56,697 nucleotides of DNA from a virus. Position numbers and translations under genes: made by a program. Below the pieces are notes generated by a model, which saw nothing but the letters and a program-made list of their open reading frames with translations, was not told the origin of the DNA and did not search any database. Each line of letters opens with the position of its first letter. Within the stretch, counting starts at the first letter, position 1. The stretch is taken from the UHGV virus genome UHGV-0866312, one strand, 5' to 3'. Positions 1,151 to 56,690 of this stretch are shown here, in pieces.

Positions 1151-1200
1151 TTGTCACAATAATACCCCAGTAGGTATATATTATACTATAAAGATTAAGG
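1151..1200 (+). promoter_or_regulatory. TTGTCACA element + dyad ATACCCCagtaGGTAT + TATAAAGATTAAGG box (class 1 recurring intergenic cassette)
   Basis: Motif shared with 14 other intergenic sites (see findings). Confidence 0.55.
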
Positions 1201-3151: not shown

Positions 3152-3503
3152 GGATATTGTAGCTAGAATGACCAATTTAGAGGGTAAAATTTGGCTTTAT
3201 AGTATCATCTATTATAGATTAGGTAGCAGTATTGTTACTGATAAAAAATATGATGATATTAGTAAGGAAATGAAGAGGCTAAAAGAGGAATACCCAGAGG
3301 AATTTAAAGCTAGTAAGCATTATGATGTATTTAAAGATTTTGAGTGGCAAAGTGGCTACTATCTACCTTTATATGATATACACATGACTGCTGTAGCAGA
3401 GTTTGTATTAATGGTTAATAATAAAGGTATGGAGGCTTACAAAGACCATGTAGGTAGAGAGCCTATTAAAATAAAAGGAAAAAGAAGAAGAAAGAGAGGG
3501 TAG
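3144..3503 (+). CDS. hypothetical protein, basic C-terminus (KGKRRRKRG)
   Basis: ORF whose start (ATGAATGA) overlaps the HNH stop, suggesting translational coupling. Confidence 0.45.
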   Translation: MNEDIVARMTNLEGKIWLYSIIYYRLGSSIVTDKKYDDISKEMKRLKEEYPEEFKASKHYDVFKDFEWQSGYYLPLYDIHMTAVAEFVLMVNNKGMEAYKDHVGREPIKIKGKRRRKRG

Positions 3504-3523
3504 TAGAAATACTACTCTTTTTT
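3500..3523 (+). terminator. rho-independent terminator
   Basis: ggtagtagaaatactactc followed by TTTTTT. Confidence 0.65.
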
Positions 3524-3594
3524 AATAGTTTTTTGTCACAGATATACCCCACTGGGCATATACTTATAGTATAAAACAAAAAGGGGTGTAATTT

Positions 3595-5439: not shown

Positions 5440-6030
5440 ATGAATAAGGCTTATATGAGATTATCACAAAAGGACAGCATTAAAAATGGCAATGGCTTTG
5501 ACAGGCAAAAGCATTTATTAAAGGATATAGAAATAGATACATGGTATCAAGATGTTATTAGTGGTGCTAAAAGAAATAGACCACAGCTAGATAAGATGCT
5601 GGAAGAGTTAGAGGCTGGGGATATTGTTTATATACCAGCTATTGACAGGTTATCAAGAAGTACAAAAGACCTTTTAGAAATTGTAGAGATAATTAAAAAT
5701 AAGGGTGCTTACTTAGTTAGCATTAATGATACATGGTTAGATACAAGGGCTAGTAACCCTATGTCAGATTTCCTTTTGACTGTTATGGGGGCTATGGCAC
5801 AGCTAGAGAGGGATATGATAGCTAAAAGAATTAAGCAAGGTGTAGAAAATGCTATAGAGCAAGGCAAGGTTATAGGCAGACCACCAGTAAACAGTGACAG
5901 AGTATTAGAGGCTGTCAAGATGTATAAAGAGACTGGTAAGAGCATGAGGGAAATAGAGGCTATTACAGGGGTCAGTAAATCAGCAATATCAAAAGCATTA
6001 AAGAAAAATAAGACAATTTCAGAGCAGTAA
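5440..6030 (+). CDS. small serine recombinase (resolvase/invertase family) with C-terminal HTH
   Basis: YMRLSQKDS with a catalytic Ser context, DRLSRS, and the C-terminal HTH SMREIEAITGVSKSAISKAL. 196 aa. Confidence 0.7.
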   Translation: MNKAYMRLSQKDSIKNGNGFDRQKHLLKDIEIDTWYQDVISGAKRNRPQLDKMLEELEAGDIVYIPAIDRLSRSTKDLLEIVEIIKNKGAYLVSINDTWLDTRASNPMSDFLLTVMGAMAQLERDMIAKRIKQGVENAIEQGKVIGRPPVNSDRVLEAVKMYKETGKSMREIEAITGVSKSAISKALKKNKTISEQ

Positions 6031-6035
6031 ATAAA

Positions 6036-6066
6036 GGGGGTAGCTTTAATAGCTACTCTTTTTTTG
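6036..6066 (+). terminator. rho-independent terminator followed by class 2 element TTGTGCCTATTAGG
   Basis: gggggtagctttaatagctactc followed by TTTTTTT. Confidence 0.65.
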
Positions 6067-6098
6067 TGCCTATTAGGTGTAAGCTAGGAGGTGCAAAA

Positions 6099-7826
6099 AT
6101 GAGCAGAAAACATGAGATTGAGAAAAAGTTAAAACAGATAGAAATGGTTAGGGATAGCATTTTAGCTGAAATAAATAAGGGTAGGACAAAGAAAGCCAGA
6201 AAGCAGAGACTACAGGATTATGCAGAGGACTTAAATGCTATTGAAAGAGAATACAGAAAGACTAGAAGTGAGATAGATGTATTATTCTTTGCTTATGAGT
6301 ATTTCAGTGATGAGAGAAACCCAGACAATGACAATAACTTAATACCACTGGGTGCTACCTTTGAAAATGCCCCAGCTATTCATAGAGAATTATGTACCAT
6401 GCTGGATGCTATTACCTTTGAAGAGCATGACAGTAAAATAGGCTGGTCAGTACCCAGAGGACATGCAAAGTCTACTTATGTATCTAATATCTATCCTATA
6501 CACTGCTGTATTTTTGAGGGTGATACACCACATGGTAGAAAGTATATATTAATCCTTTCAGAGACAGAGGATTTAAGTAAGAAATTTATTGAGTATATCA
6601 AAGACCAATTAAAGCATAATCAAAAGCTTAGAGAGGACTTTGGGGAATTATTAAGTACAAAGAAATTTGAAAATGAAAAGGATAATAGTGGTGAATTTAT
6701 CACTACAAAAGGTACTTTGGTTAGGGCTGGGTCAATTGGTAAAGCTTTAAGGGGTGCTAGAAATAAAGCATACAGACCAGACCTAGTAATATGTGATGAC
6801 CTTGAAAGTATGGAAAATACAAACACACCAGAGTTAAGAGAGAAAAATTTATTCTGGTTTAATTCAGTAGTATCACCAGTAGGTGAAAAAGGCAGAACAG
6901 CATTTCTTTATGTTGGTACTATGGTGCATGGTCAAGGGCTATTACCAGACATATTAAGCAGAATTGATTATAAGAGTAAGATTTATTCAGCTATTGTAGA
7001 GTACCCAGAGGAAACAGACTTATGGCAAAAATATGAGGATATTTTAAGTGATAAGACTGACCCAGATAGAGAGGATAAAGCAGATGCTTTTTACTTTGAG
7101 CATAAAGAGGAAATGGACAAAGGCTGTAAAACACTTTGGTCAGAAAGATGGACTTACAGAGAGTTAATTAAAGAGAAAGTAAAAATAGGTAGTAGGGCTT
7201 TCAGTAGTGAGTATTTAAATTTAGCTAGTGATAAGGAAAGTATGATTTTCCATGATGGTATTTTTACTTACTTTGATGAGCCAGATTTATATGACCAAAA
7301 TGGTAGACCTAGACCTATGGACATTTATGGCTTTTGGGATTTAGCTATTAAGGATAAGAAAAGAAGTGACTTTAATGCCATTGTAATTGTAGGTAGAGAT
7401 AGAATTACAGGGGTAATGTATGTGCTGGATGCATGGAGTGGTAAAGTGCCAGTACACAAAGCATTAGAGCATTGTATAAAAATGATTGAGCAATGGAAAC
7501 CAAAGATACTAGGTGTAGAAACAATACAGGCACAATATGAGTTATACAGACAGCTACAAGAAAAGTTATTCAAGCTGGGTATTTACTATACAAGATTAAA
7601 GCCAGTAAACCCAAAGGCTAAAAAAGAGGAAAGAATTGAGGTACTAGAGCCTTTATTTGAGACTGGTTTTTTAAGAATTAAAAGGACACAAAGAATGTTA
7701 ATAGAGCAGTTAGAACAATTCCCAAATGGTGACCATGATGACCTACCAGATGCTTTAGCATCAGCAGTAGACATAGCTGGGAAACAAAGAAAAAGAAGTC
7801 ACTACAATAAACCTAAAGGACTATAG
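6099..7826 (+). CDS. terL: terminase large subunit
   Basis: Walker A-like VPRGHAKST, a C-terminal nuclease-like acidic region, and a position before the portal gene. The start at ATG 6099 follows a TAGGAGGTG RBS. Confidence 0.85.
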   Translation: MSRKHEIEKKLKQIEMVRDSILAEINKGRTKKARKQRLQDYAEDLNAIEREYRKTRSEIDVLFFAYEYFSDERNPDNDNNLIPLGATFENAPAIHRELCTMLDAITFEEHDSKIGWSVPRGHAKSTYVSNIYPIHCCIFEGDTPHGRKYILILSETEDLSKKFIEYIKDQLKHNQKLREDFGELLSTKKFENEKDNSGEFITTKGTLVRAGSIGKALRGARNKAYRPDLVICDDLESMENTNTPELREKNLFWFNSVVSPVGEKGRTAFLYVGTMVHGQGLLPDILSRIDYKSKIYSAIVEYPEETDLWQKYEDILSDKTDPDREDKADAFYFEHKEEMDKGCKTLWSERWTYRELIKEKVKIGSRAFSSEYLNLASDKESMIFHDGIFTYFDEPDLYDQNGRPRPMDIYGFWDLAIKDKKRSDFNAIVIVGRDRITGVMYVLDAWSGKVPVHKALEHCIKMIEQWKPKILGVETIQAQYELYRQLQEKLFKLGIYYTRLKPVNPKAKKEERIEVLEPLFETGFLRIKRTQRMLIEQLEQFPNGDHDDLPDALASAVDIAGKQRKRSHYNKPKGL

Positions 7827-7841
7827 AAAGGGGGTAATTAT

Positions 7842-9386
7842 ATGTATTATTGTACACAAGGGATAAGCTTTAAAAAGGGTGAGCAATTCCCTTTTAAAAG
7901 TCACTATCCTAGAATTGAAAGATATAGGGAAAATATGAAACTATTCAAAGGTGAGCATTATGATATATTCAGAAAATATAATGTAAAAGCCTTTAATGAT
8001 ATTTACATTGCAGTCAATTTAGCTGGTTTAATTTGCAAAAAGAGTGCTGATTTATTACTAGGGGAAGAGCCTATAATTAGTGCTGGTAAAGAGGATAATA
8101 GTAATGAGCAATTAGCTATAGATAGATTTACAGATAGCAATTACATGGACATTGTAAATTATGAGAGTGCTTTGTTTAATGCTGTCAAGGGTGATAGCTT
8201 TTATAGAGTTAGATATGGTCAAGAAAATGGTGGCATCTTTACTGATGAGGAATATAGAGTATTTATTGAGGGCATAGCACCAGACCATGTATTTCCAGAG
8301 GTATCACCATTAAATAAAAAGCAGATTGTAGTATATCATTACTGTGTACCATCTTATGATGAGAATACAGAAAGCTGGTCATTAATTTGTGAAAGTCATG
8401 GGGCTGGATATGTGCTTTACCATAGCTATGATTTAAAGCCTATACAAGTAAATGTATTAGGTGAGGTAGAAAAGTTTACTATAGGTGATATGATTGATGA
8501 GCCTAAATATACCTTGACAGGGGTTAATAAACCATTAATTGTACACATTCCTAACATGGCTAGTGGTGATAACTGGGAGGGGCTAGATGACCTATCTGAA
8601 AATAAAGGGCTATTTGATGAATTAAATAACAGGCTATCACAAATAGCATCTATCTTAGATAAGCATAGTGACCCAGCACTAGCAGTACCTACAGGATTAT
8701 TACAAGAGGATGAGAATGGTAATACTAAATTTAGGGTAGCTGTAGATAAGGTTTTTGAGGTGCTAGGTAAAGATGATATTATACCACAATACATTACATG
8801 GAATGGTAACTTACAAGAGGCTATTACTGAAATGAAAGAGGTAGTAAATTTAATCTTAATGAATAGTGAAATACCAGCTATAGCACTAGGCTTATCAGAT
8901 ACAGGTACTAGTGGTAGTAGTGGATTATCCATTAAATTCAGAATGAATAGTTTACTATCTAAGATTAAGAGAAAAAGATTATATTACAAGAAAGGATTAA
9001 AACAGGTATACACTGTAGCACAAGAATTAGAGACAGCTTTGGGAATTGCTAATTATGATGTAGTAAACCCACACATTAAGTTTAATGATGGCTTACCTAC
9101 TGATGACTTACAAGATGCTAACATTATGAATGTAAGAACAGGTGGAGCAGTTACAATGTCTCAAAAGACTGCTATTATGAGACTTGACAATATGACAGAG
9201 GAACAAGCAGAGGCAGAATTAAAGAGAATTGAAGAGGAACAGAAAGCAACTGCTAACACCTTTGGTACACCAGATATATTTAACCTTGAAGATGAGGGGC
9301 AAGATGGTGAGGGTGTAGACCCTAGCTTAACTGCTGTTAATGAAGAGGCTAACCAAAATAGTAAAGTACAAGATGCTGAAAATTAA
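7842..9386 (+). CDS. portal protein
   Basis: 514 aa, immediately downstream of terL, with an acidic C-terminus. Confidence 0.7.
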   Translation: MYYCTQGISFKKGEQFPFKSHYPRIERYRENMKLFKGEHYDIFRKYNVKAFNDIYIAVNLAGLICKKSADLLLGEEPIISAGKEDNSNEQLAIDRFTDSNYMDIVNYESALFNAVKGDSFYRVRYGQENGGIFTDEEYRVFIEGIAPDHVFPEVSPLNKKQIVVYHYCVPSYDENTESWSLICESHGAGYVLYHSYDLKPIQVNVLGEVEKFTIGDMIDEPKYTLTGVNKPLIVHIPNMASGDNWEGLDDLSENKGLFDELNNRLSQIASILDKHSDPALAVPTGLLQEDENGNTKFRVAVDKVFEVLGKDDIIPQYITWNGNLQEAITEMKEVVNLILMNSEIPAIALGLSDTGTSGSSGLSIKFRMNSLLSKIKRKRLYYKKGLKQVYTVAQELETALGIANYDVVNPHIKFNDGLPTDDLQDANIMNVRTGGAVTMSQKTAIMRLDNMTEEQAEAELKRIEEEQKATANTFGTPDIFNLEDEGQDGEGVDPSLTAVNEEANQNSKVQDAEN

Positions 9387-9475
9387 TAGATAATTAGCTG
9401 TCACAATAATACCCCTATAGGTATATATTATATTATAAAGATAAATAAATAATAGATACTGAAAGGGGTATAAAT

Positions 9476-12369: not shown

Positions 12370-12870
12370 ATGAATTTAAGAACAACTTTAAACATGAAAG
12401 AAAACTCTTCACAAGTATTAGCAAGAGTGTCACAGTATTTTAATACTAATGTATTTAATAGTGGTAGCTGGGATAGTTTGACACCAGAATTACAGATTAA
12501 AGCTATTTACAATGCCTATAGGATTTTAACTAATTTGCTACCAGAAATATACTGCTGTGATGCTGATGAAATGACTATAGATATAGATGACCTATGTAGT
12601 GAAATACAATGGATTATACAAAAAGATGACAGTGTACAAAGAGCAGAGCAAGGGGCTACTAGTGTAAGTCTAGGTGATATGTCAATATCTTTTAACTTAG
12701 AAGAGGGGGCAAGATTAATAGCACCTTTCATCAAGCAAAGATATGGACTTAGTGAGACTGGACAGATAAGAAAAGTAGGGCAATATATTACACCTAGAGT
12801 AGATACCTATAGGACTGGTATGCATAGAGGTAATAGAAGATTTATAAGAGGTGGTATATATGGCAAATAA
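12370..12870 (+). CDS. head-tail connector protein (inferred from position)
   Basis: Gene order and size. Confidence 0.45.
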   Translation: MNLRTTLNMKENSSQVLARVSQYFNTNVFNSGSWDSLTPELQIKAIYNAYRILTNLLPEIYCCDADEMTIDIDDLCSEIQWIIQKDDSVQRAEQGATSVSLGDMSISFNLEEGARLIAPFIKQRYGLSETGQIRKVGQYITPRVDTYRTGMHRGNRRFIRGGIYGK

Positions 12871-14465: not shown

Positions 14466-14475
14466 AAACATTAAG

Positions 14476-14504
14476 GAGTGTCAGAAATGGCACTCTTATT
14501 TTTT
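14476..14504 (+). terminator. rho-independent terminator
   Basis: gagtgtcagaaatggcactc + ttatttttt, immediately followed by GTCACA. Confidence 0.6.
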
Positions 14505-14581
14505 GTCACAGATTATACCTATTAGGGTATTTAATATCATAAGAAAACAGTTAATAGCTGTGATGATAAGGAGTGATTTAA

Positions 14582-15350: not shown

Positions 15351-16010
15351 GTGAATGATATGTATGGAAAAATTAAAGATGATAAATTAATATATGCCCC
15401 AGTAAATTATCTAACATCAGAGGGTAAAATGATATTTAATTTTAATGAAAATGTTGAGGCTATGAAAGCCAATGGATTTAAAGAGGTAATAGATGATATA
15501 CCTAAATATGATGAGAATATTTATAAACTAAAGTTTGATGGCTACAATGAGACAGCTACAAACATTATAGTAGTGTATACTACAGAGCCTTTAGAATTAA
15601 CACCAGAGCAAAAGAAAGCTTATGAGCAAAAGTTAGCATTGACATTTTTAGGTGATATGCTTACTGATGAGCAAGCCTTACAAGTACCTAGCATTTTTAA
15701 TGAGTGGCAAGCTGGTGTAGGTTATAAGACTGGTACTAAGCTTTTATATAATGGTGTTTTGTATAAGGTATTACAAGACCATAGCAGTCAAGCAGACTGG
15801 ACACCAGACAAAGCACCTAGCTTATTTGCAAAAGTTATCAATGAGACATTAGAGGGTGATATACCAGACTGGGTACAGCCAGATAGCACTAACCCTTATA
15901 TGACAGGTGATAAGGTGAAATTTGAGGGTAAAGTATATGAGAGTTTAATAGATAATAATACATGGTCACCTACTGAATATCCTACAGGGTGGAAAGAATT
16001 AGCACAGTAA
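15351..16010 (+). CDS. protein with two CBM5/12 (chitin-binding type 3) domains
   Basis: YNGVLYKVLQDHSSQADWTPDKAPSLF and YMTGDKVKFEGKVYESLIDNNTWSPTEYPTGW match the ChiC-type CBM5/12 consensus. Confidence 0.7.
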   Translation: MNDMYGKIKDDKLIYAPVNYLTSEGKMIFNFNENVEAMKANGFKEVIDDIPKYDENIYKLKFDGYNETATNIIVVYTTEPLELTPEQKKAYEQKLALTFLGDMLTDEQALQVPSIFNEWQAGVGYKTGTKLLYNGVLYKVLQDHSSQADWTPDKAPSLFAKVINETLEGDIPDWVQPDSTNPYMTGDKVKFEGKVYESLIDNNTWSPTEYPTGWKELAQ

Positions 16011-21467: not shown

Positions 21468-21573
21468 GTCACAGTTAAACACTGTGGCTTTTTTATTTAG
21501 TGACCTTAAAAATGCCAGTTTAAAAGAGTAATTAAAAGACTAAAAGGAGTGAAGAAATAAGGAGGGTATAAGT

Positions 21574-30121: not shown

Positions 30122-30463
30122 TTTGCCCCTACAATGCCCCTAGAGGCTTTTATAACAGCTTTTATTATAGAGTAGACTTACTAGACCTTTAAATTAAAGT
30201 CTATTCCTAGAGGCTGTTAGGGCTATTTATAAAGGTGGTTTACAATATTTTTCTAGTAAAACAAGAATGGCACTATCACTGGCTTATAAAAAATAGAGTT
30301 ACATATTAATTCAGCAAAGAGGCTGATAGGTTAAAAGGCTATTGTTATGTATACCATATGTCACAGAAAATAGGACAGGTGCATATATTAATAGGTGAGG
30401 ATATAACTGCTATAACTTCTTATATCTTTTATATATAACAACAAAGTAACTGTTAAATAATAG

Positions 30464-30504
30464 GTAAAAATATTGACCTAAAGATAATAACTATATATAA
30501 CTAT
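30464..30504 (+). promoter_or_regulatory. near-consensus sigma-A-type promoter (TTGACC-N17-TATAAC); copy 2 of the 41-bp exact repeat
   Basis: Identical to 1025-1065. Its upstream ~60 bp (ctgctataacttctt...) is also similar to 961-1024. Confidence 0.65.
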
Positions 30505-30608
30505 TTATTTTGTATTATCTTACAGTAAAATATTTTACCTTTATTAAAAATGTCACAGTATCAAATAAAATGCTTATTTAATAGTAAAGAATGATTGAGG
30601 TGATATTT

Positions 30609-33723: not shown

Positions 33724-33852
33724 TAGTAAGGGTGACACAATATTGTCACTCTTTTTCTATGTTTGGGTGTTTGAATATTCAAAAATGTCACAGCATGTAT
33801 GTTACTGAATATAATTATATTAGAAAATTGAAAATAGAAGTGGGGTGGTAAT

Positions 33853-35235: not shown

Positions 35236-35264
35236 TTAACATTTAGAAACTATTCTAATATAAT
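35236..35264 (+). promoter_or_regulatory. sigma-A-type promoter TTAACA-N17-TATAAT
   Basis: Direct reading, upstream of 35333. Confidence 0.5.
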
Positions 35265-35332: not shown

Positions 35333-36025
35333 ATGGTAGAAAAATTTACAGAGAGGGTTAATAATATTGCTTATGCATTAGCAACTATGGAGGATAAAGA
35401 AAGCTACTTATATCAAATAAAATGGTCAGACCTTTATGACTTAATTCATGAAAGGGTTTGTAATAGATGTGAGAGGCTTTATAGACACTATTCAATTGAA
35501 TGTAGACTAAATATAGAAAAAGAGGCTTTTGAGGAAATAGGTTTAACAGCAAAAATTAAAGCTGTAAATGGTTATGATATTACAAAAGGTGACTTTATGG
35601 CTAGATTGAATTTAATCATAGACCAACAAGCTAAAACATTAGTAAGGGATGCACAAAGTAATAAGAGGCTTGCAATGACTTATTGTAGCACTTCACTGGA
35701 TGCACCTACCATCCATGCTAAAGATGATGACCTATGCTTAATGGACACTTTACAAGATGAAAGTGCTGATACAGAGGTGTTAGTAATTAGCAAACAAAAT
35801 AACTTATTAAAAGCATTAAAGAATTGGTCATTAATCAATAAAAAGACTTTGAGAGATAGCAGACTAATTTATATCAATATGATAGTAGTAGATAAGGATG
35901 CTAAAAGGGATGCTTTATGTAAGATAACTGCTAAAAACTGGGTGACTACAAGAAAAGCATTATCAAGGGCTAACCAAAACTTTGTAAAGTATTTAAATGA
36001 AAATCAAATAGAAATAGCTGGTTAA
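35333..36025 (+). CDS. hypothetical protein, possible transcription regulator (weak sigma-like features)
   Basis: ORF with its own consensus-like promoter. Similarity is weak. Confidence 0.3.
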   Translation: MVEKFTERVNNIAYALATMEDKESYLYQIKWSDLYDLIHERVCNRCERLYRHYSIECRLNIEKEAFEEIGLTAKIKAVNGYDITKGDFMARLNLIIDQQAKTLVRDAQSNKRLAMTYCSTSLDAPTIHAKDDDLCLMDTLQDESADTEVLVISKQNNLLKALKNWSLINKKTLRDSRLIYINMIVVDKDAKRDALCKITAKNWVTTRKALSRANQNFVKYLNENQIEIAG

Positions 36026-36155
36026 TAAAAATGAGGGTGCTACTTTAAAGCATCCTCTTTTTTTGTCTTTTATATATGTCACAGTAGAAATTAAGTGAGT
36101 ATTTAATACTATGAAAGAGATTTCTGAATTATTAGAAAATAAGGAGTGAATGAAT

Positions 36156-38477: not shown

Positions 38478-38564
38478 TTGCTACTTTCCTTTTTTGCCCT
38501 GTAATGTCACAGCTACTATAACAGTGAATATATGAAACTATAAGGATAATTTGAGGTGATAGAT

Positions 38565-41203: not shown

Positions 41204-41208
41204 AAGTA

Positions 41209-41238
41209 AGGGTAGCAGAAATGCTACCTTTTCTTTTT
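41209..41238 (+). terminator. rho-independent terminator (gggtagcagaaatgctacc + T-run) directly abutting GTCACA
   Basis: Direct reading. Confidence 0.65.
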
Positions 41239-41303
41239 GTCACAATACATACTGGTGTGGGTATTTATAACTATAAAGATTAAGACAAAGGGGAATTAAG
41301 ATT

Positions 41304-43296: not shown

Positions 43297-43396
43297 AAGT
43301 TAAGGACAGCTAAAAATGCTGTCCTATTTTTATGTCACAAATACCTACAAGGGGTATATATAATATTATCAAATATTTAAGGAGTGATTAGGTAGT

Positions 43397-45023: not shown

Positions 45024-45103
45024 CAGGGTAGCAGAAATGCTACTCTTTTTTTGTCACAAAAATAAACTATTTCCATATATTGATAGTATAAGGAGGTGGT
45101 TAG

Positions 45104-46424: not shown

Positions 46425-48749
46425 ATGACAGCATTGAAATTAAATTTAAGTATGGATGCTGATAAGAAGAAAGAGGCTAGAGTAAAAGAGGCTGTAAAAA
46501 AGGTAAAGGCATCAGATTATGAGCCTACATGGTCAGAGGTGTGGAATGGCTACACTAACCCTATTAGTGGCACTGCTAAAAAAGGTATATTCCAGCTTAA
46601 AAATACTGCTAATGATTTAAAGAAATTAAAAGCAGTAAAGAAAGCTATTGAAAGTGAAGAATTAGGCACTAATGTTACTAGCTTAAAGAAATTCAGTAAA
46701 ACACATGCACTAGGCTTATATGCAGTTTTAGTAGAGCAACAAAAAGAGGCTACTATAAAAGAAATGATAGAGAATAAGCCAGATAATTACCACCTAGTAG
46801 ATAATACTGTATCTTTATTTGATATGTGCCAAAAGCTAAATGATGAGGAAATAATAGCACTAGATACAGAGACTACAGGGGTAGAGCATAAAGATGTAAC
46901 AGTAGGTATGTCCTTAACATTACCAAAGGCTGACCAACACTATTATATTCCATATAGACATACTACAGGTGAGAAACAATTAGCACCAGAGATAGTATTT
47001 AAAGCAGTTAAGCCACATTTAGAGAGGCTAGACCTAGTATTACACAATGCTAAATTTGACTATAAAATGTTAATTAAAGATGGCATTGAGTTAAAGAATA
47101 TCAAGGCAGATACTATGGTATTAATGCACATTTTAAATGAGAATGAAATGTCATTAAAATTAAAAGATTTGGCTAATAAATATGGTCACAAATTTGGTTA
47201 TGAGCATCCTAGTATGACTTATGAGGAATTGTTTGGTAATGGTGGCTTTGAGGCTACACCACTTGAAATAGGGCATATCTATGCATGTAAAGATACACAT
47301 TTAACATGGCTATTATATCAATGGCAATTAAGTTATTTAGATAAGATGCCAAAAGTAAAAAGTGTATTCTTTGATATAGAAATGAAACTAATGCCAGTAT
47401 TATTAAAAACTGAATTAAGGGGCTTTGATGTAGACCTAGATTATTCAGAGCAATATAAAAAGCAGTTATCTGGTGAGATAGCTGAAATGGAAAAGAAACT
47501 AGATGAATTTTTCCCAGATATAAACCTAAATAGTAATCAGCAATTAGCTTATTATTTATTTGAGGTAATAGGGCTGGATAGAGTAAAAGGTGACAGTGTA
47601 GATAAAGAGGTATTAAATGTACTAGCTGATGACTATGAGGGTATCAAAGTATTATTAGAGTACAGAAAATTAACAAAATTATTAAGCACCTACATTGAGC
47701 CACTACCTAAAATGGTGTGGGAGGATGGCTTTTTACATGGTGAGTTAAATCAGATAGGTACTAAAACAGGTAGATTAGCAAGTAATAACCCTAACCTACA
47801 AAATATACCCCCACAGGCTAGAAAGATATTTGTAGCACCAAAAGGTAAATTATATATGTCATGTGACTTTAGTAAGATGGAGGTATTTTTAGCATGTGAG
47901 TTAAGTGATGACCCTAACTTATATGAGGCTTTACATGGTGGTCATGATGTGTATAGTGTGCTGGCATCAAAGTCATATCACTTACCTATAGAGCAATGTG
48001 GTGATGGTACTATTTACAGAAAGCACAGTAAAACAGCATTACTAGGATGTATGTATGGTGCTTTACCTTTTACTATAGCTAAACAAGTAAATGTATCTGT
48101 AGAAGAGGGAGAGGAAATTTTAAATAGCTTTTTTGATGGTAACCCAGTCTTAACACAGTCTATCCATAATTGTCATGACCTTGTAGCTAAACAAGGATAT
48201 GTAGAGACTATTACAGGTAGAAAAAGAAGATTTCCAGAGATACCAAAGCTATGCAAGCTGTTAGATAAAATCAATAGAGAAATTAAGAGAATGACAGGTA
48301 AGACTGGTGATGAGTGGTGTAAGGAATATAACAGCATATTCCAGATACCTAAAAAGCTACCTTATGAGGTTAAGCAACAATATCACAGCACTAATAAAAC
48401 TATCCAGAAAGCCTTTAGACAGTCATTTAATGCTACTGTACAAGGCAGTGGTGGTGATATATGCAAGATTGCTTTAATAAACTTGCAAAACTACTTTGAT
48501 GAGTTAAATAAGGACTTACCAGAGTGGAAACACTATCATATTATTTCATCTATTCATGATGAGCAGTTAATGGAAGTACCAGAGGATATACCAGCAGAGG
48601 TAATAAAGCAAATTGATTACATCATGTGTAACACTATGCCTTTAAAGGTGCATATGAAAACAGATATAGAGTTTTATAAAAGATACTACCATGATGGTAA
48701 ATCTATAGCACAGGTATTAGCTGGTGACCTACCAAAAGCTGACCTTTAA
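46425..48749 (+). CDS. family A DNA polymerase with 3'-5' exonuclease domain
   Basis: Exo I ALDTETTG. Motif A CDFSKMEV, motif B RKHSKTALLGCMYG, motif C SIHDE. Confidence 0.9.
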   Translation: MTALKLNLSMDADKKKEARVKEAVKKVKASDYEPTWSEVWNGYTNPISGTAKKGIFQLKNTANDLKKLKAVKKAIESEELGTNVTSLKKFSKTHALGLYAVLVEQQKEATIKEMIENKPDNYHLVDNTVSLFDMCQKLNDEEIIALDTETTGVEHKDVTVGMSLTLPKADQHYYIPYRHTTGEKQLAPEIVFKAVKPHLERLDLVLHNAKFDYKMLIKDGIELKNIKADTMVLMHILNENEMSLKLKDLANKYGHKFGYEHPSMTYEELFGNGGFEATPLEIGHIYACKDTHLTWLLYQWQLSYLDKMPKVKSVFFDIEMKLMPVLLKTELRGFDVDLDYSEQYKKQLSGEIAEMEKKLDEFFPDINLNSNQQLAYYLFEVIGLDRVKGDSVDKEVLNVLADDYEGIKVLLEYRKLTKLLSTYIEPLPKMVWEDGFLHGELNQIGTKTGRLASNNPNLQNIPPQARKIFVAPKGKLYMSCDFSKMEVFLACELSDDPNLYEALHGGHDVYSVLASKSYHLPIEQCGDGTIYRKHSKTALLGCMYGALPFTIAKQVNVSVEEGEEILNSFFDGNPVLTQSIHNCHDLVAKQGYVETITGRKRRFPEIPKLCKLLDKINREIKRMTGKTGDEWCKEYNSIFQIPKKLPYEVKQQYHSTNKTIQKAFRQSFNATVQGSGGDICKIALINLQNYFDELNKDLPEWKHYHIISSIHDEQLMEVPEDIPAEVIKQIDYIMCNTMPLKVHMKTDIEFYKRYYHDGKSIAQVLAGDLPKADL

Positions 48750-48799
48750 TGTCACAAATAATACCCCCTAGAGTATTTATTACCACAGGGGGTGTGCAT

Positions 48800-49141
48800 G
48801 TGAGTTATGAAAAAGTAATGTCAATGACAATTTATCAAGGGATTAAACAAAATATAGCTAGTGGATGCTGGTATATAGATATAGATAAAGGCATTGTAAT
48901 GAACAGTAAAAGAATGAAACCAATAACAGCAGTAAATAGCAGTGGCTACTATGTCATAAGGGGTGCTGATAAGGTGCTGTATTATATGCACCAGATTATA
49001 GCTGTAGCTGGTGGCTTAAATCCAGTAGGGTATCAAGTAGACCACAAGAATAGAAATAGGCTAGATAACAGATTTGATAATTTAAGATGTGCCACACCAG
49101 CAGAGAATTTAGCTAATAGAGGTGGTATGTATGAAATGTGA
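48800..49141 (+). CDS. HNH endonuclease (probable GTG start; listed ORF starts inside the GTCACA element)
   Basis: VDHKNRNRLDNRFDNLRCATPAENLANRG HNH motif. Confidence 0.65.
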   Translation: MSYEKVMSMTIYQGIKQNIASGCWYIDIDKGIVMNSKRMKPITAVNSSGYYVIRGADKVLYYMHQIIAVAGGLNPVGYQVDHKNRNRLDNRFDNLRCATPAENLANRGGMYEM

Positions 49142-50409: not shown

Positions 50410-50441
50410 AAGGGGCTGATTATTTCAGCCTCTTCTTTTTT
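50410..50441 (+). terminator. rho-independent terminator abutting GTCACA
   Basis: aggggctgattatttcagcctctt followed by cttttttt. Confidence 0.6.
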
Positions 50442-50501
50442 GTCACAATGTATACCTACTAGGGTATTTATAACTATAAAGATTTAAAGGGGATGCAGTA
50501 A

Positions 50502-50837
50502 ATGAAAATTAGTGATGAGTACAGCATAGAGGCTATTGATTATGACAATGTAACACTATTACAGGCTTATACAGATAAGAAAGGTAAACCAGCTACTAAG
50601 ATAATTGGTTACTTTCCTAGTATTGGTAAAGCACTTAACTACATGATAATTCACAGCATCAATGGTACAGGGCTTAAAGATGTGAATGAGGTAGTTAAAA
50701 AGATTATGACCCTAAAGGAAATGATAAACCTTTTAGATACTGATGGACTACAAAAGGCACTTAATGAAAATAGAGATTTAAAAAAGAGAATTTCAGAATT
50801 AGAGAGTAAGGGGGATATGAAAAATGGAAGTAAATAA
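50502..50837 (+). CDS. hypothetical protein
   Basis: ORF after a class 1 cassette. Confidence 0.45.
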   Translation: MKISDEYSIEAIDYDNVTLLQAYTDKKGKPATKIIGYFPSIGKALNYMIIHSINGTGLKDVNEVVKKIMTLKEMINLLDTDGLQKALNENRDLKKRISELESKGDMKNGSK

Positions 50838-51384
50838 GATTTGTTTATGTGGTCAATTAAGAAGTGGTAAGGACACTTTAGGCAAGCTTTTAGTTAATAA
50901 TTGTGGATTTACTAGGGTAGCTTTTGCTGACCCTATTAGAGCCATTGTTAAAGAGTATTTCCCAGACTTACCAGAGAATGAAAAGCCTAGAGAATTACTT
51001 CAATTTATAGGTGAGGGCTTTAGAAAGTATGACCCTTATGTATGGATAAAAGCAATGGAAAGACAAATAAGAGAGCATCAGCAGTATGACCCTCTAAGCA
51101 GTTATAGAAATAGTAAATTTGTTATTACTGACTGTAGATATATGAATGAATTGGAATGGTGCAAGGCTAATGGCTTTATTACTATCAAAATAGAGGCTGA
51201 TGACAGTATAAGACTTGAAAGAGCCTTAAAGGATAATCCTAGTTTTGACTGGCACTTAATGTATGACCCTAGTGAGTTAGAAGTACCCCACATGGTAACA
51301 GATTACACCATAACTAATAATGGTAGCTTTGACAGCTATTTAGATGACACTACTGAATTGCTTAAATATTTAGGTTTGATGTAG
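50824..51384 (+). CDS. deoxynucleoside monophosphate kinase
   Basis: P-loop CGQLRSGKDT and DCRYMNE, typical of the phage dNMP kinase family. Confidence 0.6.
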   Translation: MEVNKICLCGQLRSGKDTLGKLLVNNCGFTRVAFADPIRAIVKEYFPDLPENEKPRELLQFIGEGFRKYDPYVWIKAMERQIREHQQYDPLSSYRNSKFVITDCRYMNELEWCKANGFITIKIEADDSIRLERALKDNPSFDWHLMYDPSELEVPHMVTDYTITNNGSFDSYLDDTTELLKYLGLM

Positions 51385-51395
51385 GGGGTGGGCTT

Positions 51396-51719
51396 ATGTT
51401 TATGGATTATAACAGCTATGACATTAATGATATATACAGAGCCTTAAAGTGCAAAGATGCTTATAAGGGTATAGCTGGTGCTACTGGTGATTATACTTTC
51501 AGTGATATTGTCATGGATGCAGAAACCATTATAAAAGAGGCTAACTTAACTGAAAGACAAAGACTAGTAATTAAGCTTTACCATGAGGATGATTTAACAT
51601 TAGCTACTATTGGTGAAATGCTAGGCATCACACATCAAGCAGTTAAAGACTGTTTAAATCAAGCTAGTAAAAAGATTAATAAAGTATTGGAGGGGTGGAA
51701 AGATGGCAGTACAATATAG
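51396..51719 (+). CDS. sigma-70 region 4-containing transcription regulator (ArpU/RinA-like late activator candidate)
   Basis: ERQRLVIKLYHEDDLTLATIGEMLGITHQAVKDCLNQASKKI is a classic sigma70 r4 HTH. Confidence 0.55.
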   Translation: MFMDYNSYDINDIYRALKCKDAYKGIAGATGDYTFSDIVMDAETIIKEANLTERQRLVIKLYHEDDLTLATIGEMLGITHQAVKDCLNQASKKINKVLEGWKDGSTI

Positions 51720-52152
51720 ACTTTATTCTATTGAAGATGTACAAAGTGCTTTATGTGGTATCTCACATTTAGGAATGGATGACTATAAGAAAGAGGTACA
51801 AGATTTAGTATATGGACTACAGCAAACAGCACTAAGCCTTTTACCCTCTTTAGATGAAAGAAAAGAGATATGTAATTATATTACTGACCATTATATATGC
51901 AAGATGAATAGCCAGCCTACAAACTACATTTTATATGGCTTAGGTAGTTATTTGTTACTGGACTATATCAAAGAGAAATACAAGGATAGAAATGCTGATA
52001 ATCAATTCTTAACTACAAAGCAAACAAGTAGAAGAATGGCAAGAGAGTTGATTACTGGTGAGGATAATTTAAATTACTTTAATGCCTTATATAACTACTC
52101 TATAGATAGCTTGCACAAGAAAGGTAGTGAGATAAATGACTATAATAAGTAG
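51703..52152 (+). CDS. hypothetical protein
   Basis: ORF. Confidence 0.4.
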   Translation: MAVQYRLYSIEDVQSALCGISHLGMDDYKKEVQDLVYGLQQTALSLLPSLDERKEICNYITDHYICKMNSQPTNYILYGLGSYLLLDYIKEKYKDRNADNQFLTTKQTSRRMARELITGEDNLNYFNALYNYSIDSLHKKGSEINDYNK

Positions 52153-52450
52153 GATTATAAGCCATATTAAAGCCCACCTAGTGTATAAGAGGTTACTAGA
52201 TAGCCTCTTTACCTATGAGGGTGCTACTGCTACCTATATGTATTATGTAGTGAATATAGAGAACATCAAAGGCAATAGTAGCTTAGAAAAGCTGTATAAG
52301 ATATTAAATTATCTAATGGATTTATCTATAAGATGTAGTGATAACAAAAATAGTAGAGAGGCTATTTTAATGATAAATGATGTGCTTTCCAAAGAATGTG
52401 CTAGATACAGATTTTACTTTATTGAAAAGGAATTAGAAAAATTTAAATAG
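52136..52450 (+). CDS. hypothetical protein
   Basis: ORF. Confidence 0.4.
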   Translation: MTIISRIISHIKAHLVYKRLLDSLFTYEGATATYMYYVVNIENIKGNSSLEKLYKILNYLMDLSIRCSDNKNSREAILMINDVLSKECARYRFYFIEKELEKFK

Positions 52451-52532
52451 TAGAATGTCACAGCAATTAATTATATGAATATAACTTATTATAAGAAATT
52501 TTTAATTAATAATTTAAAAGAGAGGTATTAGA

Positions 52533-52919: not shown

Positions 52920-53141
52920 TACAGAGGTACATGAGGTAGGTAAGCCAAATGTAAAAGAGTTAATTAAAAGGGTGCTAGAATTAATCTAGTGCCTTTTTTG
53001 TTGCCTATTTATCAAGGTTAGAGTAGTATACTAATAGATACCCCTACTTTATAAGGTGTTATGAATAGCATCTTATTTAGTGGGAGTGTCACAGAAACCT
53101 ATTACTGTGGGTATTTCCCTACTAGAAAGGATGTTTTTTGT

Positions 53142-54602
53142 ATGAGAAAAAAGTTATTACTTTATGCCAGAAAATCTAGGATTAAAAAGAATGAAATGTC
53201 ACTAGAGGCACAAGTAGAATTACTAATTAAATACTGTAATGACCATGACTATGACTATGTTATTTACAGTGAAGAGGGTAGTAGTGAAAACTGGGAAAGA
53301 CCAGAATTTCAGAAAATGATGGAAGAGGGTAAAAAAGGTATTTATGATGGTGTACTGGTAACAGTCACAGACAGAATAAGCAGAAAAGGACTAGTATGGT
53401 ATAGCTTTGTTGAGTATTGTTTAGACTATGGCTTATTATTATTCACACTAGATAAGATTTATGACTTTACTAATGATGATGATATTTTAGTTACTGGTAT
53501 TCAGTCAGAAATGAATAGTTTGTTTATGAGGGTCACAAAGAAGAAATTAAAAAGAGGGGTAGAGTTAGCTGTACAAAAAGGTATCTATATGGGTACTGTA
53601 CCTTTTGGATATACCAAAGATAAAAGCAAGCATCTTATACCAGACCCAGAGACAGCACCAGCAGTAAATATTATATTCAAAAAGTTTTTAGAGGGTTATA
53701 ATCAAGTACAGATAGCAGAATATTTGAATAACAGAGGTTATAAAACAATTGATGGTAATATCTTTACTAATGTAGCTGTAAGAGATATTTTAATGAATAT
53801 CACATATACTGGTAGCATCCTATGGAATGGCATTTTTGTTGCTGATGCACACCCAGCCTTAATAGATACAGAAACCTATAATAAGGTTAAAGCTATCAAG
53901 GATAAACAGAAAGCACCAGCAGAGTATAAAAAAGCTAAATACCCTTTGACTGGGCTTTTAAAATGCCATGAATGTGGTCAGACATTATCACTTAAAAGAG
54001 ATACTAAGAATAAGAAAGTATATGTTTCTAACTGTCTTAGGAGTGCTGTGTCTAGGAGTGAGGCAAAATTAAATAAAATCAAATGCACTACTAAGGGCTG
54101 TGATATGGCTAGATTATTACCTATAGTTTATGATGCCCTTAGAAAGCATATGATTAGTATAGATGAACAGATAGAGGCTGTATTATCAGATACTAACATG
54201 CTAATTGATGAAATAGCAACAGAAATGGAACAGCTAGAGCATAGAAAGGCTGAATTAATTAAACAAAAGCAAAGAATACAAAAGGGCTTTATTGCTGGCA
54301 TCTTATCAGAGGATGAGGCAAAGGAAGAAAAGAAAGACTGTGAAATACAGATAAATTCTGTAGATAATGAAATATTAATCTTAAAGAATAAAGATGTAAA
54401 AGGTGAGGTAAGCAAGCTAGAAAAAGTTAAACTGACAATAGAACAGCTTTTAACAGGGAATTTAAAGAATGAGGACAGCAATAGACTGTTAAAGAGTATT
54501 ATAGACCACATAGACTTTAAAAAGACTGAAAGAGACATTTACAACCATAAAGACCCAGATAAAAGGTATGCACCTGTAAAATTAACAATTCACTATAAGT
54601 AA
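53142..54602 (+). CDS. large serine recombinase (integrase family)
   Basis: N-terminal LLYARKSR...SLEAQ catalytic Ser region, recombinase domain, Cys-rich zinc module CHECGQ...C and a coiled-coil C-terminus. A GTCACA element at 53088 suggests the start at ATG 53142. Confidence 0.75.
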   Translation: MRKKLLLYARKSRIKKNEMSLEAQVELLIKYCNDHDYDYVIYSEEGSSENWERPEFQKMMEEGKKGIYDGVLVTVTDRISRKGLVWYSFVEYCLDYGLLLFTLDKIYDFTNDDDILVTGIQSEMNSLFMRVTKKKLKRGVELAVQKGIYMGTVPFGYTKDKSKHLIPDPETAPAVNIIFKKFLEGYNQVQIAEYLNNRGYKTIDGNIFTNVAVRDILMNITYTGSILWNGIFVADAHPALIDTETYNKVKAIKDKQKAPAEYKKAKYPLTGLLKCHECGQTLSLKRDTKNKKVYVSNCLRSAVSRSEAKLNKIKCTTKGCDMARLLPIVYDALRKHMISIDEQIEAVLSDTNMLIDEIATEMEQLEHRKAELIKQKQRIQKGFIAGILSEDEAKEEKKDCEIQINSVDNEILILKNKDVKGEVSKLEKVKLTIEQLLTGNLKNEDSNRLLKSIIDHIDFKKTERDIYNHKDPDKRYAPVKLTIHYK

Positions 54603-54654
54603 GAGTAATAGAGGTTATCAGCTATTAAGCTGGTAGCCTCTTCTTTTTATTATT

Positions 54655-54790
54655 TTGTCCACTTTATTTTAATACCTTTTAGTGGACAGAAACATAAATA
54701 AGGTGTATACTATAAATATAGTAAGAAATAAATTTTTTTCCTACTTTGTCCACTAAACTAGTCACACTTTAGTAGACAGATGCATATAAT
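54655..54790 (+). promoter_or_regulatory. operator/promoter region 1: dyads GTCCACT-N17-AGTGGAC and GTCCACTAAA-cta-GTCACA-c-TTTAGTAGAC; GTCACA-N18-TATAAT
   Basis: Direct reading. The 10-bp dyad arms flank GTCACA, with a perfect TATAAT at 54785-54790. Confidence 0.6.
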
Positions 54791-54824
54791 AAAGTATAAA
54801 GATTAAGAGAAAGGAATGATTTAA

Positions 54825-55076
54825 ATGACAATCACAATGACAAAGGAAAGCTACAAAAAAGAGGGTAAGAAATGGATGCTAACAGCTACAGAAACTAAGG
54901 AGATAACAGAAACACAATATCACAGCATTATAGATGCTAAACACTTCTTTACTAACTTAGGAGGATATGAAAGACACACTAAAAGCTATACAAGTGCTGG
55001 CTACCTAGTAACTAAGATAAACAGCATATCACCAGATAAGGAAAATAAATCAGTTTATCAATTTAATATCAAATAA
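54825..55076 (+). CDS. hypothetical small protein
   Basis: ORF with an AAAGGAATG RBS, downstream of operator/promoter 1. Confidence 0.45.
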   Translation: MTITMTKESYKKEGKKWMLTATETKEITETQYHSIIDAKHFFTNLGGYERHTKSYTSAGYLVTKINSISPDKENKSVYQFNIK

Positions 55077-55081
55077 TACAA

Positions 55082-55106
55082 GGGGGCTGATTTTTTAGCC
55101 CCTTTT
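55082..55106 (+). terminator. rho-independent terminator
   Basis: gggggctgattttttagcccc followed by tttt. Confidence 0.6.
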
Positions 55107-55198
55107 GTCCACTAAATTATTTTTAGGGATTTAGGAAACATTTAATAGATTACTGCATATAATATAGTATAAAGACAAAGAGGAAAGGAATGGTAAAT

Positions 55199-55414
55199 AT
55201 GAAAACAACAAAGAAAGAATACAAAGAGGAAATAAGGACAATGACAAAGATGATATTTAATAGTAAGAATACAGAGGCAGTAGAGCAACTAAATAAAGCA
55301 TATAGCAGTAATTTAGATGGTAGATTATTCATTCATAGCAAAGCTACATTAGGACAGCTAGAAAGCTTATATGAGGCTGTAGTAAATCTAGTAAGTGATT
55401 ACAGAATAGCATAA
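55199..55414 (+). CDS. hypothetical small protein
   Basis: ORF downstream of a TTGTCCACTAAA half-operator and a TATAAT. Confidence 0.4.
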   Translation: MKTTKKEYKEEIRTMTKMIFNSKNTEAVEQLNKAYSSNLDGRLFIHSKATLGQLESLYEAVVNLVSDYRIA

Positions 55415-55456
55415 CAGAAAGGGGCTGATAAAAGCCCCAGTACATATTTTATAAAA

Positions 55457-55501
55457 TTGTCCACTAAAATAGTCACAATTTAGTAGACACCTACATATAA
55501 T
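55457..55501 (+). promoter_or_regulatory. operator/promoter region 3: GTCCACTAAA-ata-GTCACA-a-TTTAGTAGAC; GTCACA-N18-TATAAT
   Basis: Direct reading. The dyad has one mismatch. Confidence 0.6.
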
Positions 55502-55556
55502 ATATTATAAAGATTAAAAAGTCATGGCAGACTATAAAAGCTGAAAGGGTTTAAAT

Positions 55557-56261: not shown

Positions 56262-56690
56262 CTGTTATTTCAGATAATGGCTACTGGTAATTAATGATTA
56301 ATGACAGTAAGACTTGCATTAATAAATAGGCTTTAAGCTATTAAGTAGCAAGGTAAATTTAAAGGTATTTGCAGTAGGTAATAAAAGGCTGTAAAGGCTG
56401 ATATATCAATGCTTTGGGGCAGTCTCATTAACAGATAATAATGTCAGATAATTAGCTTATATTTGTCTTTTAATAACTGGTAATAGGGCATAATTAATGC
56501 TATAAATAGCTGATAATTTACAGATAATTAAGCAGTTAAAATAGAATAATGTTACTGATAATTAAGCAGATATTGTAGCAGATAATGTATAGATAATAGG
56601 CTGTAATAGCAGATAATGTAGCCTATAGATAGCTTATAATAAGCTGATAGATAACTGATAATAAGCTGATAATTAACTGTAAATATTCCC
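56262..56690. repeat. iteron-like array: at least 13 copies of C(A/T)GATAAT in about 430 bp
   Basis: Copies include cagataatgg, cagataataatg, cagataattag, ctgataattta, cagataattaag, ctgataattaag, cagataatgtat, agataatagg, cagataatgtag, ctgatagataa, ctgataataag, ctgataattaac. Confidence 0.65.

Follow-up and report, generated by a model that had tools for sequence, protein, structure and literature searches.

The DNA analyzed here (the window, i.e., the whole 56.7 kb stretch of the virus genome UHGV-0866312; G+C 33%) is a tailed-phage genome in which every gene lies on the + strand. Its intergenic regions carry a recurrent cassette built on the hexamer GTCACA, and the data presented below make it very likely that these cassettes represent about 18 promoters. 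Also, the open reading frame (ORF) 35333-36025 encodes a protein predicted, from profile comparisons and from a structural model, to be a previously unrecognised full sigma-70-family factor. We estimate at roughly 0.6 the probability that this phage sigma factor reads the GTCACA promoters.

Abundance and Anatomy of the GTCACA Cassettes

Over the whole window, GTCACA was found in 39 copies for 14.9 expected, a count that none of 100 shuffled sequences reached. In the 4,974 intergenic bases, where it is the most over-represented hexamer, 19 copies are located on the + strand (0.57 expected) and none on the − strand. All 17 positions listed in a preliminary description of this DNA are present on the + strand, and the enrichment against shuffled or expected sequence, which that description had named as a check, turned out to be far above expectation. 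The composite motif GTCACA-N16-18-TAT(A/T)NN was detected at 20 places on the + strand and at none on the − strand, for a mean of 0.34 and a maximum of 2 in the first-order Markov simulations used as null model for composite counts. Eighteen of these 20 sites are intergenic and lie 39-87 nucleotides (nt), or 231 nt in one case, 5' of the next start codon. Three GTCACA sites were absent from the preliminary description: one intergenic (30360), one intragenic (12429), and one at 21468, which is part of a terminator hairpin and has no -10 box. The intragenic site (12429-12460, GTCACA-N17-TATTTA, within ORF 12370-12870) could be an internal promoter.

The organization of the sites is that of bipartite sigma-70-type promoters, with two blocks separated by a near-constant spacer of 16-18 bp, on the coding strand and 5' of the ribosome-binding site. 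They do not carry the -35 hexamer of the host sigma-A (TTGACA, with T-35 and G-33), as G1 and C3 of GTCACA are invariant in 18/18 window sites and in all relatives. The preliminary description had suggested a -35-like element of non-sigma-A sequence associated with a TATAAT-like box, and strand specificity, 16-18 nt spacing, position and conservation bear this out at the sequence level. A -35 hexamer shifted to TTGTCA was ruled out, because the spacer would become 18-20 nt.

The hexamer had also been described as lying almost always 0-5 nt from a terminator T-run. This was overstated: 6 of the 18 sites (3535, 14505, 41239, 43334, 45053, 50442) abut the tail of a predicted terminator, three others (33787, 36078, 38506) are found 10-33 nt 3' of a terminator, and the remaining ones follow stop codons or operators. 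A terminator stem, GTAGCAGAAATGCTAC, recurs at 30098, 41212 and 45028, with variants near 3500 and 14478, at terminator-promoter junctions, and the cassettes 1153 and 9400 are about 93% identical across 44 nt. The reuse of this stem together with the near-identity of these two cassettes suggests that the cassette spread by duplication. A degenerate cassette, GTCCATTATAATACCCC…CAGTATAAT, in which GTCCAT stands instead of GTCACA, follows the small-terminase terminator at 469-502. An identical 40-nt block containing a sigma-A-like TTGACC-17-TATAAC was found at 1025-1064 and at 30462-30501, each time 50-90 nt 5' of a GTCACA promoter (1153 and 30552, respectively). Such pairs may constitute tandem early and phage-sigma promoters.

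Conservation in Related Phages

A megablast search with both halves of the window found no near-identical relative among 50,697 deposited phage records. Based on the DNA polymerase, the closest cultured phages are the Clostridium phages vB_CtyS-FA67 and FA70 (46% identity) and the Bacillus phage PK2 (41%). The DNA polymerase search also yielded metagenomic proteins with 62-65% identity, well over a hundred in number and mostly from partial contigs, the longest of which reach 56-69 kb. Metagenome relatives include L019 (95-99%), a clade at 74% PolA identity (L021, L029-31) and a large clade at about 63% (L023, L035).

Intergenic GTCACA was present 5' of genes in every related lineage fetched, down to 41% PolA identity. 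The hexamer forms GTCACA-N14-GG(T/A)TATATAAGTATAA in the 74% clade (6-9 sites on the + strand, 0 on the − strand, about 0.2 expected), GTCACA-N15/16-CATAyxxT…TATAAGA in the 63% clade (8 and 1-2, 0.2-0.35 expected), GTCACAATC-N11-CCTACATATAAT in FA67 (10 and 0, 0.03 expected) and GTCACA-N14-TCGTTG in PK2, a phage of 43% G+C (12 and 1, 0.0 expected), these lineage-specific composites having been set after the sites were seen, which makes the statistics partly circular, and the excess being very large. In PK2 the spacing ranges over GTCACA-N14-16-CGTTG. Thus, the upstream element is fixed and the downstream box depends on the lineage. The motif is absent from the Listeria phage LP-037, the Sporosarcina phage Lietuvens and the Bacillus subtilis phage phi18-2. 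A degenerate form of the cassette searched over IMG/VR gave 18 single hits, apparently due to chance, none with local GTCACA enrichment, and a literature search on the GTCACA phage promoter and on FA67 found no relevant paper.

On its − strand, the contig L035 carries at 15585-15989 three sigma-A-type promoters in tandem. One has TTGACA and two have GTAACA, always with an A-tract on the upstream side and with TATAAT at a distance of 17-18 nt. The small genes that they would drive form a divergent block resembling an early region, and the remaining genome uses GTCACA.

The CATA-type boxes raise the question of a host sporulation sigma of the sigma-K type, which would tie phage expression to sporulating mother cells. 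Sigma-K promoters of C. difficile associate a -35 'AC' with a -10 'CATATAAT' (PMC3789822), and the window sites 54761 and 55472, most FA67 sites and most sites of the 63% clade read GTCACA-N15-18-CATA(T/C)xxT. Against this, the phage has its own sigma, nothing marks ORF 35333 as a sigma-K orthologue, and replication and structural genes must be expressed in vegetative cells. Moreover, most window -10 boxes begin with G or A, not C, and the FA67 spacing exceeds the sigma-K norm by 1-2 nt. We consider it very improbable that sigma-K reads these promoters.

A Candidate Phage Sigma Factor

In PK2, an annotated RNA polymerase sigma factor is encoded directly 3' of the primase gene, and ORF 35333 occupies the same position. 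The window protein itself has no direct match in Pfam or PHROG. Its alignment with homologues nevertheless displays a region 2 signature (…GLTAKIKAV..YD..KG.F..RL…I.Q……RDAQ) and a C-terminal helix-turn-helix, and a profile built from ORF 35333 and its two closest homologues matched the sigma-H region 2 structure 3mzy (E = 0.0015). Word-indexed protein searches yielded one region-4 homologue and two sigma homologues; an exhaustive HMMER search reached further and retrieved 34 relatives of the sigma. In a family alignment of 36 sequences (the window protein, 33 HMMER relatives, FA67 ORF33 and the PK2 sigma), 21/36 match Pfam Sigma70_r2 and 13/36 match Sigma70_r4, and the window protein matches none. 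The sigma profile found no relatives in IMG/VR or in GTDB genomes.

An AlphaFold model of ORF 35333 based on 14 sequences showed two helical domains with a pLDDT of 80.8 (an earlier model from 3 sequences, with a pLDDT of 58.6, was discarded). The top 50 Foldseek matches in the PDB were all sigma factors, and those in a viral library were mostly phage sigma factors. The scores were modest (best E of 4e-3 in the PDB and 3e-4 in the viral library), with TM-scores near 0.3 that we attribute to the flexible linker between the domains. Placement in a particular sigma family was not obtained, the best sequence match being sigma-H and the fold matches spanning all sigma groups; no Sigma70_ECF match was found for the window sigma.

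Synteny agrees with this assignment, as a sigma homologue follows the primase gene in the window, L028, L029-31, FA67 and PK2. FA67 ORF33 shares 26% identity with the window sigma (tblastn E = 1e-6). The comparison with the PK2 sigma was not significant by BLASTP or hhalign, the sigma-2 region of PK2 having no detectable similarity, and what connects the two proteins is limited to synteny, membership in one family and a short helix motif, R-(K/Q)-x-x-(S/Q)-R, located in sigma-4 and common to all these sigmas, PK2 included. The unrelated sigma-2 sequence of PK2 matches its different -10 box (CGTTG), and the shared sigma-4 helix motif matches the shared GTCACA. Across phages, the motif co-occurs with a primase-adjacent sigma in four lineages, which is a small sample. 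LP-037 and phi18-2, which lack the motif, have a region-4-only protein and no primase-adjacent sigma, and in the motif-free Lietuvens the annotated sigma is located elsewhere than beside the primase.

The sigma gene is preceded by a predicted host sigma-A-type promoter, TTAACA-17-TATAAT, the sole intergenic 11/12 match on the + strand of the scanned regions (the window without 19-28 kb). A palindrome, TTAGAA-N4-TTCTAA (35243-35258), exactly fills the spacer of this promoter; it could be an operator over sigma expression, or a chance occurrence in AT-rich DNA. Host-type promoters are also found at the sigma genes of FA67 (TTGACA-17-TATTAT) and PK2 (TTGACG-17-TATACT). That of L028 has a weaker candidate (TTGCAC-18-TATGAT), and that of the 74% clade a TATAAT box alone, with no convincing -35. 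In FA67, PK2 and L028 a GTCACA promoter lies nearer to the sigma gene than the host-type promoter, which suggests positive autoregulation.

Proposed Transcription Cascade and Alternatives

The analysis establishes the motif with its statistics and conservation, together with the sigma fold and the synteny; which protein binds which element, and in what order, we infer as follows. The cassette would be the core promoter of a phage-specific transcription class, with GTCACA as -35-type element, a TAT(A/T)- or CATA-type box 16-18 nt 3' as -10 and, in the window lineage, a third box TATAA(A/G) near the transcription start. Host RNA polymerase with sigma-A would first transcribe 35333-36025 from TTAACA-17-TATAAT. 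The phage sigma would then join the host core polymerase, its sigma-4 domain reading GTCACA and its sigma-2 domain the -10 box. About 18 units would fire, for replication, nucleotide metabolism, lysis and the structural-gene arm (the latter by position), and the intrinsic terminators 5' of many cassettes would insulate them from one another. Finally, a dyad present at 8-9 promoters, described below, would set the timing of a sub-class via a dimeric phage regulator. In PK2 at least, a non-sigma-A sigma must act, since CGTTG is not a sigma-A -10 box.

Several points weigh against this proposal. The sigma assignment of ORF 35333 comes from profile and fold evidence with moderate E-values, the motif-free contrast is made of two phages only, and the sigma gene is unconfirmed in the 63% clade, where the fetched loci end just short of the locus. 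Also, the window -10 boxes (TATAAT, TATATT, TATTTA) are acceptable to sigma-A as well, GTCACA agrees with TTGACA at 4/6 positions, and the sites 54761 and 55472 score 10/12, so that the host holoenzyme could read some sites.

Taken further, the latter observations would make all the sites ordinary host sigma-A promoters, in which the -35 is a phage-lineage variant (xTxACA) and a phage factor is unneeded. Their 16-18 nt distance to TATAAT-like boxes would fit, a consensus scan ranks eight sites as sigma-70-type (9-10/12), and the homologous early promoters of L035 carry GTAACA or TTGACA at the equivalent place. T-35 and G-33 are the strongest sigma-A contacts, and precisely these are replaced by G1 and C3, without exception in the window and across five lineages. 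Canonical TTGACA/TTAACA promoters coexist with GTCACA in these genomes, at sigma genes and early blocks, and in PK2 GTCACA is paired with CGTTG. In addition, sigma-70-type matches were overall no commoner than in shuffles in three scans (81 vs 86.6, 84 vs 99.3, 62 vs 68.0). This explanation thus appears improbable to us.

A second alternative involves the region-4-only protein 51396-51719, which the preliminary description had named, together with 35333-36025, as a possible reader of the motif. It would bind GTCACA as a class-II-type activator or a surrogate sigma-4, sigma-A would read the -10, and ORF 35333 would have another role. This protein has a clear helix-turn-helix domain (Pfam Sigma70_r4, E = 2.9e-11), its closest structures being YlxM/UPF0122 (PDB 1s7o, E = 2.7e-12), and the sigma-A-like -10 boxes of the window would suit such a scheme. 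It was found in the window, L021, L023, L035, FA67 (ORF67) and PK2, i.e., in every GTCACA-bearing phage examined, and for this reason may be a co-reader, which is a further point against the phage sigma as the reader. It has, however, homologues in the motif-free LP-037 and phi18-2, the recognition helix being similar in phi18-2 (ITQKNV vs ITHQAV). Its gene lies 3' of the GTCACA promoter 50442 and lacks a dedicated host-type promoter, and in PK2 the box CGTTG is unfit for sigma-A, yet GTCACA is kept at equal distance. We therefore find it doubtful that this protein is the reader. Of the two candidates, the phage sigma at 35333-36025, with its predicted sigma-2 and sigma-4 domains and its own host-type promoter, is the stronger one, because it would be a full sigma factor and because the region-4-only protein also occurs in two motif-free phages.

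The region-4-only gene belongs to a conserved gene string: dNMP kinase, region-4-only protein, a protein of about 148 amino acids (aa), and a protein of 104-122 aa (window 50824-52450; L021 13885-15552; L023 15331-16459; L035 7697-9369). The pair of kinase and region-4 genes is also found in PK2, FA67 and Listeria LP-037. For the 148-aa protein, no homologue of known structure was detected, and the idea of a 'split sigma' for this neighbour (149 aa in the window) was unsupported, as no PDB profile match was obtained.

Promoter Subclasses, Dyad and Third Box

Both promoter subclasses of the preliminary description were recovered. The first one, with a dyad ATACC-N6/7-GGTAT, comprises 8 promoters (1153, 3535, 9400, 14505, 41239, 43334, 48751, 50442) with at most one mismatch, plus a weak ninth (53088). 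The distance from GTCACA to the dyad is fixed at 3-4 nt (1 nt for 43334), and the dyad overlaps the spacer and the edge of the -10 box. The second one, GTCACAGC-N13-TGAATATA, is present at 33787, 38506 and 52457. The two halves of the dyad co-occur (contingency table 9, 2, 1, 6; Fisher p = 0.013), the arms being conserved and the centres variable. All four promoters of the 1-15 kb arm (1153, 3535, 9400, 14505) bear the dyad, this arm being considered a packaging/structural module from gene order and ORF sizes, with an annotation that covered ORFs up to 6030. The promoters of the replication and ribonucleotide-reductase module (30.4-38.5 kb) are all devoid of it.

The dyad probably serves as operator of a dimeric phage regulator, which would time a promoter sub-class. 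Two inverted half-sites with constant spacing, conserved arms and a variable centre are in line with the dimeric regulator proposed previously. An RNA hairpin was ruled out, since the arms do not covary but keep their sequence, and since the dyad lies 5' of the likely start. The dyad is confined to the window lineage, neither the 74% nor the 63% clade having it, though the region-4 protein is present in both, and no candidate protein correlates with it. Some promoters of the 63% clade have palindromes of the form GTCACA-N4-6-(T)GTGAC (L023 9950 and 12334; L035 3465, 5995 and 12774 on the − strand), in which the -35 element is one half of the inverted repeat. These palindromes may be operator sites competing with the sigma.

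The third box, TATAA(A/G), was found 27-29 nt after GTCACA in 10/18 promoters, about where transcription should start. It was rejected as the true -10, as FA67 and PK2 lack it and have their -10 at the position of the first box. The box is not specific to the phage sigma, since it also follows early promoters of the sigma-A type in L035 and is not present in FA67 or PK2. It may serve as start-site context, as a 5' leader or as a pause element.

This box also has a bearing on the possibility that GTCACA is a signal other than a promoter, such as an RNA processing signal, an antiterminator loading site, or a replication or packaging site. The second -10-like box recalls the element that induces pausing at lambda-type late promoters, GTCACA is often beside terminators, and FA67 ORF67 gives a weak Phage_antitermQ match (E = 1e-4). 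These features have to be set against the fixed distance to a -10-like box, the location 39-87 nt 5' of start codons, the abutment of terminators at 6/18 sites only, and dyad arms that do not covary. Also, an Rfam scan of the window gave no match. A non-promoter function is thus highly unlikely in our opinion.

Features of the Genome

The predicted promoters and the candidate regulatory genes are collected in Table 1.

Table 1. Predicted promoters and candidate regulatory genes of the window.
Feature	Coordinates	Strand	Remarks
Predicted GTCACA promoter	1153..1197	+	Dyad ATACC-N6-GGTAT 1162-1177, TATAAAGATTAAGG box; start 1240 is 87 nt 3'
Predicted GTCACA promoter	3535..3580	+	Dyad 3544-3559 (1 mismatch); abuts terminator 3492-3523
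Predicted GTCACA promoter	9400..9445	+	Dyad 9409-9424; near-identical to 1153 cassette
Predicted GTCACA promoter	14505..14545	+	Dyad 14515-14530; abuts terminator 14474-14497; heads putative tail block (gene order and size only)
GTCACA-N18-TATATT site	30360..30400	+	Without dyad; next gene 231 nt 3'
Predicted GTCACA promoter	30552..30590	+	Without dyad; 5' of DnaD/DnaC/DnaB replication genes
Predicted class b promoter, GTCACAGC-N13-TGAATATAAT	33787..33830	+	5' of deoxyribosyltransferase and primase genes
Predicted GTCACA promoter	36078..36120	+	Without dyad; 5' of SSB-like gene
Predicted class b promoter, GTCACAGC-N13-TGAATATATG	38506..38550	+	5' of thioredoxin and NrdG/NrdD genes
Predicted GTCACA promoter	41239..41285	+	Dyad 41249-41264 (1 mismatch), TATAAAGATTAAG box; abuts terminator 41208-41231
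Predicted GTCACA promoter	43334..43375	+	Dyad 43341-43357 (N7); abuts terminator 43303-43325; 5' of dUTPase gene
Predicted GTCACA promoter	45053..45095	+	Without dyad; abuts terminator 45025-45046; 5' of 207-aa gene and amidase homologue
Predicted GTCACA promoter	48751..48795	+	Dyad 48761-48776 (1 mismatch); overlaps polA stop codon; 5' of HNH-family gene
Predicted GTCACA promoter	50442..50490	+	Dyad 50452-50467; abuts terminator 50410-50434
Predicted class b promoter, GTCACAGC-N13-TGAATATAAC	52457..52500	+	
GTCACA-N18-TATTTC site	53088..53130	+	Weak dyad; 5' of large serine recombinase gene
Predicted GTCACA-N18-TATAAT promoter	54746..54806	+	GTCACA 54761, centre of inverted repeat GTCCACTAAA...TTTAGTAGAC (putative operator), then TATAAAGATTAAG box
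Predicted second operator-embedded GTCACA-N18-TATAAT promoter	55457..55517	+	GTCACA 55472
Predicted host sigma-A-type promoter	35236..35264	+	TTAACA-17-TATAAT, 11/12 matches; 5' of sigma gene
Predicted divergent sigma-70-family factor gene	35333..36025	+	230 aa, sigma-2 and sigma-4 domains; proposed GTCACA reader
Region-4-only (YlxM/UPF0122-like) helix-turn-helix gene	51396..51719	+	107 aa; alternative or auxiliary reader
149-aa protein gene	51703..52152	+	Beside region-4 protein in three aligned metagenomic relatives (L019, L021, L023)

The small terminase gene is located at 34-450, and a tRNA scan of the window gave no hits. The unit led by promoter 3535 contains two ORFs of unknown function, an invertase-like serine recombinase gene (5440-6030) and the ORFs 6066-7826 and 7842-9386, putatively involved in packaging by position only; ORF 6066-7826, presumed to encode the large terminase, had no relatives in IMG/VR. 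Replication genes occupy 30.6-35.2 kb and encode two DnaD-like proteins, DnaC, DnaB and the primase. Other identified genes encode NrdD/NrdG (anaerobic ribonucleotide reductase), a dUTPase, a Pol I DNA polymerase and an amidase homologue, and the 207-aa gene 3' of promoter 45053 corresponds to DUF4230 in the relative L019. HNH endonucleases were detected three times via PHROG and a fourth time via homology to L019; for the HNH-family gene 3' of promoter 48751 (Pfam HNH_3 in L019), the start was shifted by eye from 48749 to 48806. The unit led by 50442 comprises the dNMP kinase, the region-4 protein and the 149-aa and 104-aa genes. A second, large serine recombinase (53142-54602) has its own GTCACA promoter, and its gene probably starts at 53142 and not, as annotated for the ORF, at 53061.

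Beside this recombinase gene, the region 54642-55520 contains four copies of the half-site TTGTCCACT(A/T)A (54657, 54748, 55107, 55459). Paired with AGTGGAC or AGTAGAC in inverted orientation, these half-sites build large inverted repeats that surround three similar promoter cassettes of 61 nt (54746, 55119, 55457), which precede small genes of 83, 74 and 121 aa. This region looks like a repressor/operator switch.

Two other repeated elements were noticed. About five tandem 11-bp iterons, CAGTGAGGTAT, are found at 616-672, in a long non-coding stretch directly 3' of the small-terminase gene, and could be a packaging or replication site. The segment 56209-56697 contains 11 copies of GATAA(T/G) for about one expected, partly spaced by 11 nt (56625-56676). 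This cluster lies at the end of the window and adjoins the small-terminase gene if the genome is circularly permuted.

Significance and Comparison With Known Systems

These data provide a testable transcription map of an uncultured phage, with about 18 predicted units, a candidate sigma and a candidate operator. The map extends to the sampled relatives and to two cultured phages, Clostridium FA67 and Bacillus PK2, which share the -35 element. It also gives a predicted function to a protein family without Pfam or PHROG annotation, and a short orthogonal sigma/promoter pair could serve as a genetic tool in Clostridia.

In Bacillus and Clostridia, mother-cell promoters of sigma-K and sigma-E combine a -35 with 'AC' and a -10 'CATAT(A/T)AT' at about 16-17 nt (PMC3789822). 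The sigma-K-like form of the -10 is found in FA67, in the 63% clade and in 5/18 window sites (54761, 55472, 3535, 30360, 45053). However, 'AC' is far less specific than the full invariant hexamer GTCACA, the form G/A-TAT(A/T)T prevails among the window -10 boxes, and the proposed reader is a phage sigma. One may speculate that GTCACA and the sigma-4 recognition helix form a conserved module joined to different sigma-2/-10 types (TATA/CATA-type in gut Clostridia phages, CGTTG in Bacillus phage PK2), and that the CATA form mimics sigma-K promoters. By such mimicry, the phage sigma could cross-activate mother-cell genes of the host, or the host sigma-K could transcribe phage genes during sporulation. 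This idea is unlikely in our estimation; if true, it would tie a widespread gut-phage clade to host sporulation control.

The PK2 arrangement, GTCAC and CGTTG at 16 nt, has the geometry of extracytoplasmic function (ECF) sigma promoters. The ECF consensus is AAC-N16-CGT. The window phage differs by its AT-rich -10 of TATA/CATA type, not CGT. There is also a likeness to the early promoters and conserved inverted repeats of the Streptomyces phage phiC31, which we take to have one transcription orientation, a serine recombinase and many near-identical promoters of non-host consensus, presumably with an inverted-repeat operator at a subset of them. Sequence, host and proteins are unrelated, and to our knowledge no phage sigma factor has been identified in phiC31.

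The closest parallel in mechanism would be the SPO1 cascade (gp28 for middle genes, gp33/gp34 for late genes), also from a phage of a Gram-positive host with a small sigma-70-family protein. According to a published account, the phage sigma displaces the host sigma-A on the host core polymerase in SPO1 (PMC13401047). In the window phage, similarly, non-host -35 promoters would be read after a host-driven early expression, and as for gp28, sigma-2 and sigma-4 domains are predicted in one protein whose gene has a host-type promoter. The SPO1 consensus, which we take to be AGGAGA or CGTTAGA, differs from GTCACA. No similarity of the window sigma to named phage sigma families was detected (no PHROG match), one promoter class appears to span both replication and structural genes, and its sub-classes are marked by an operator-like dyad, not by a second sigma. 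By analogy, the arrangement appears to work like an SPO1-type cascade, which is an already known viral strategy, and the GTCACA system would be a new example of it.

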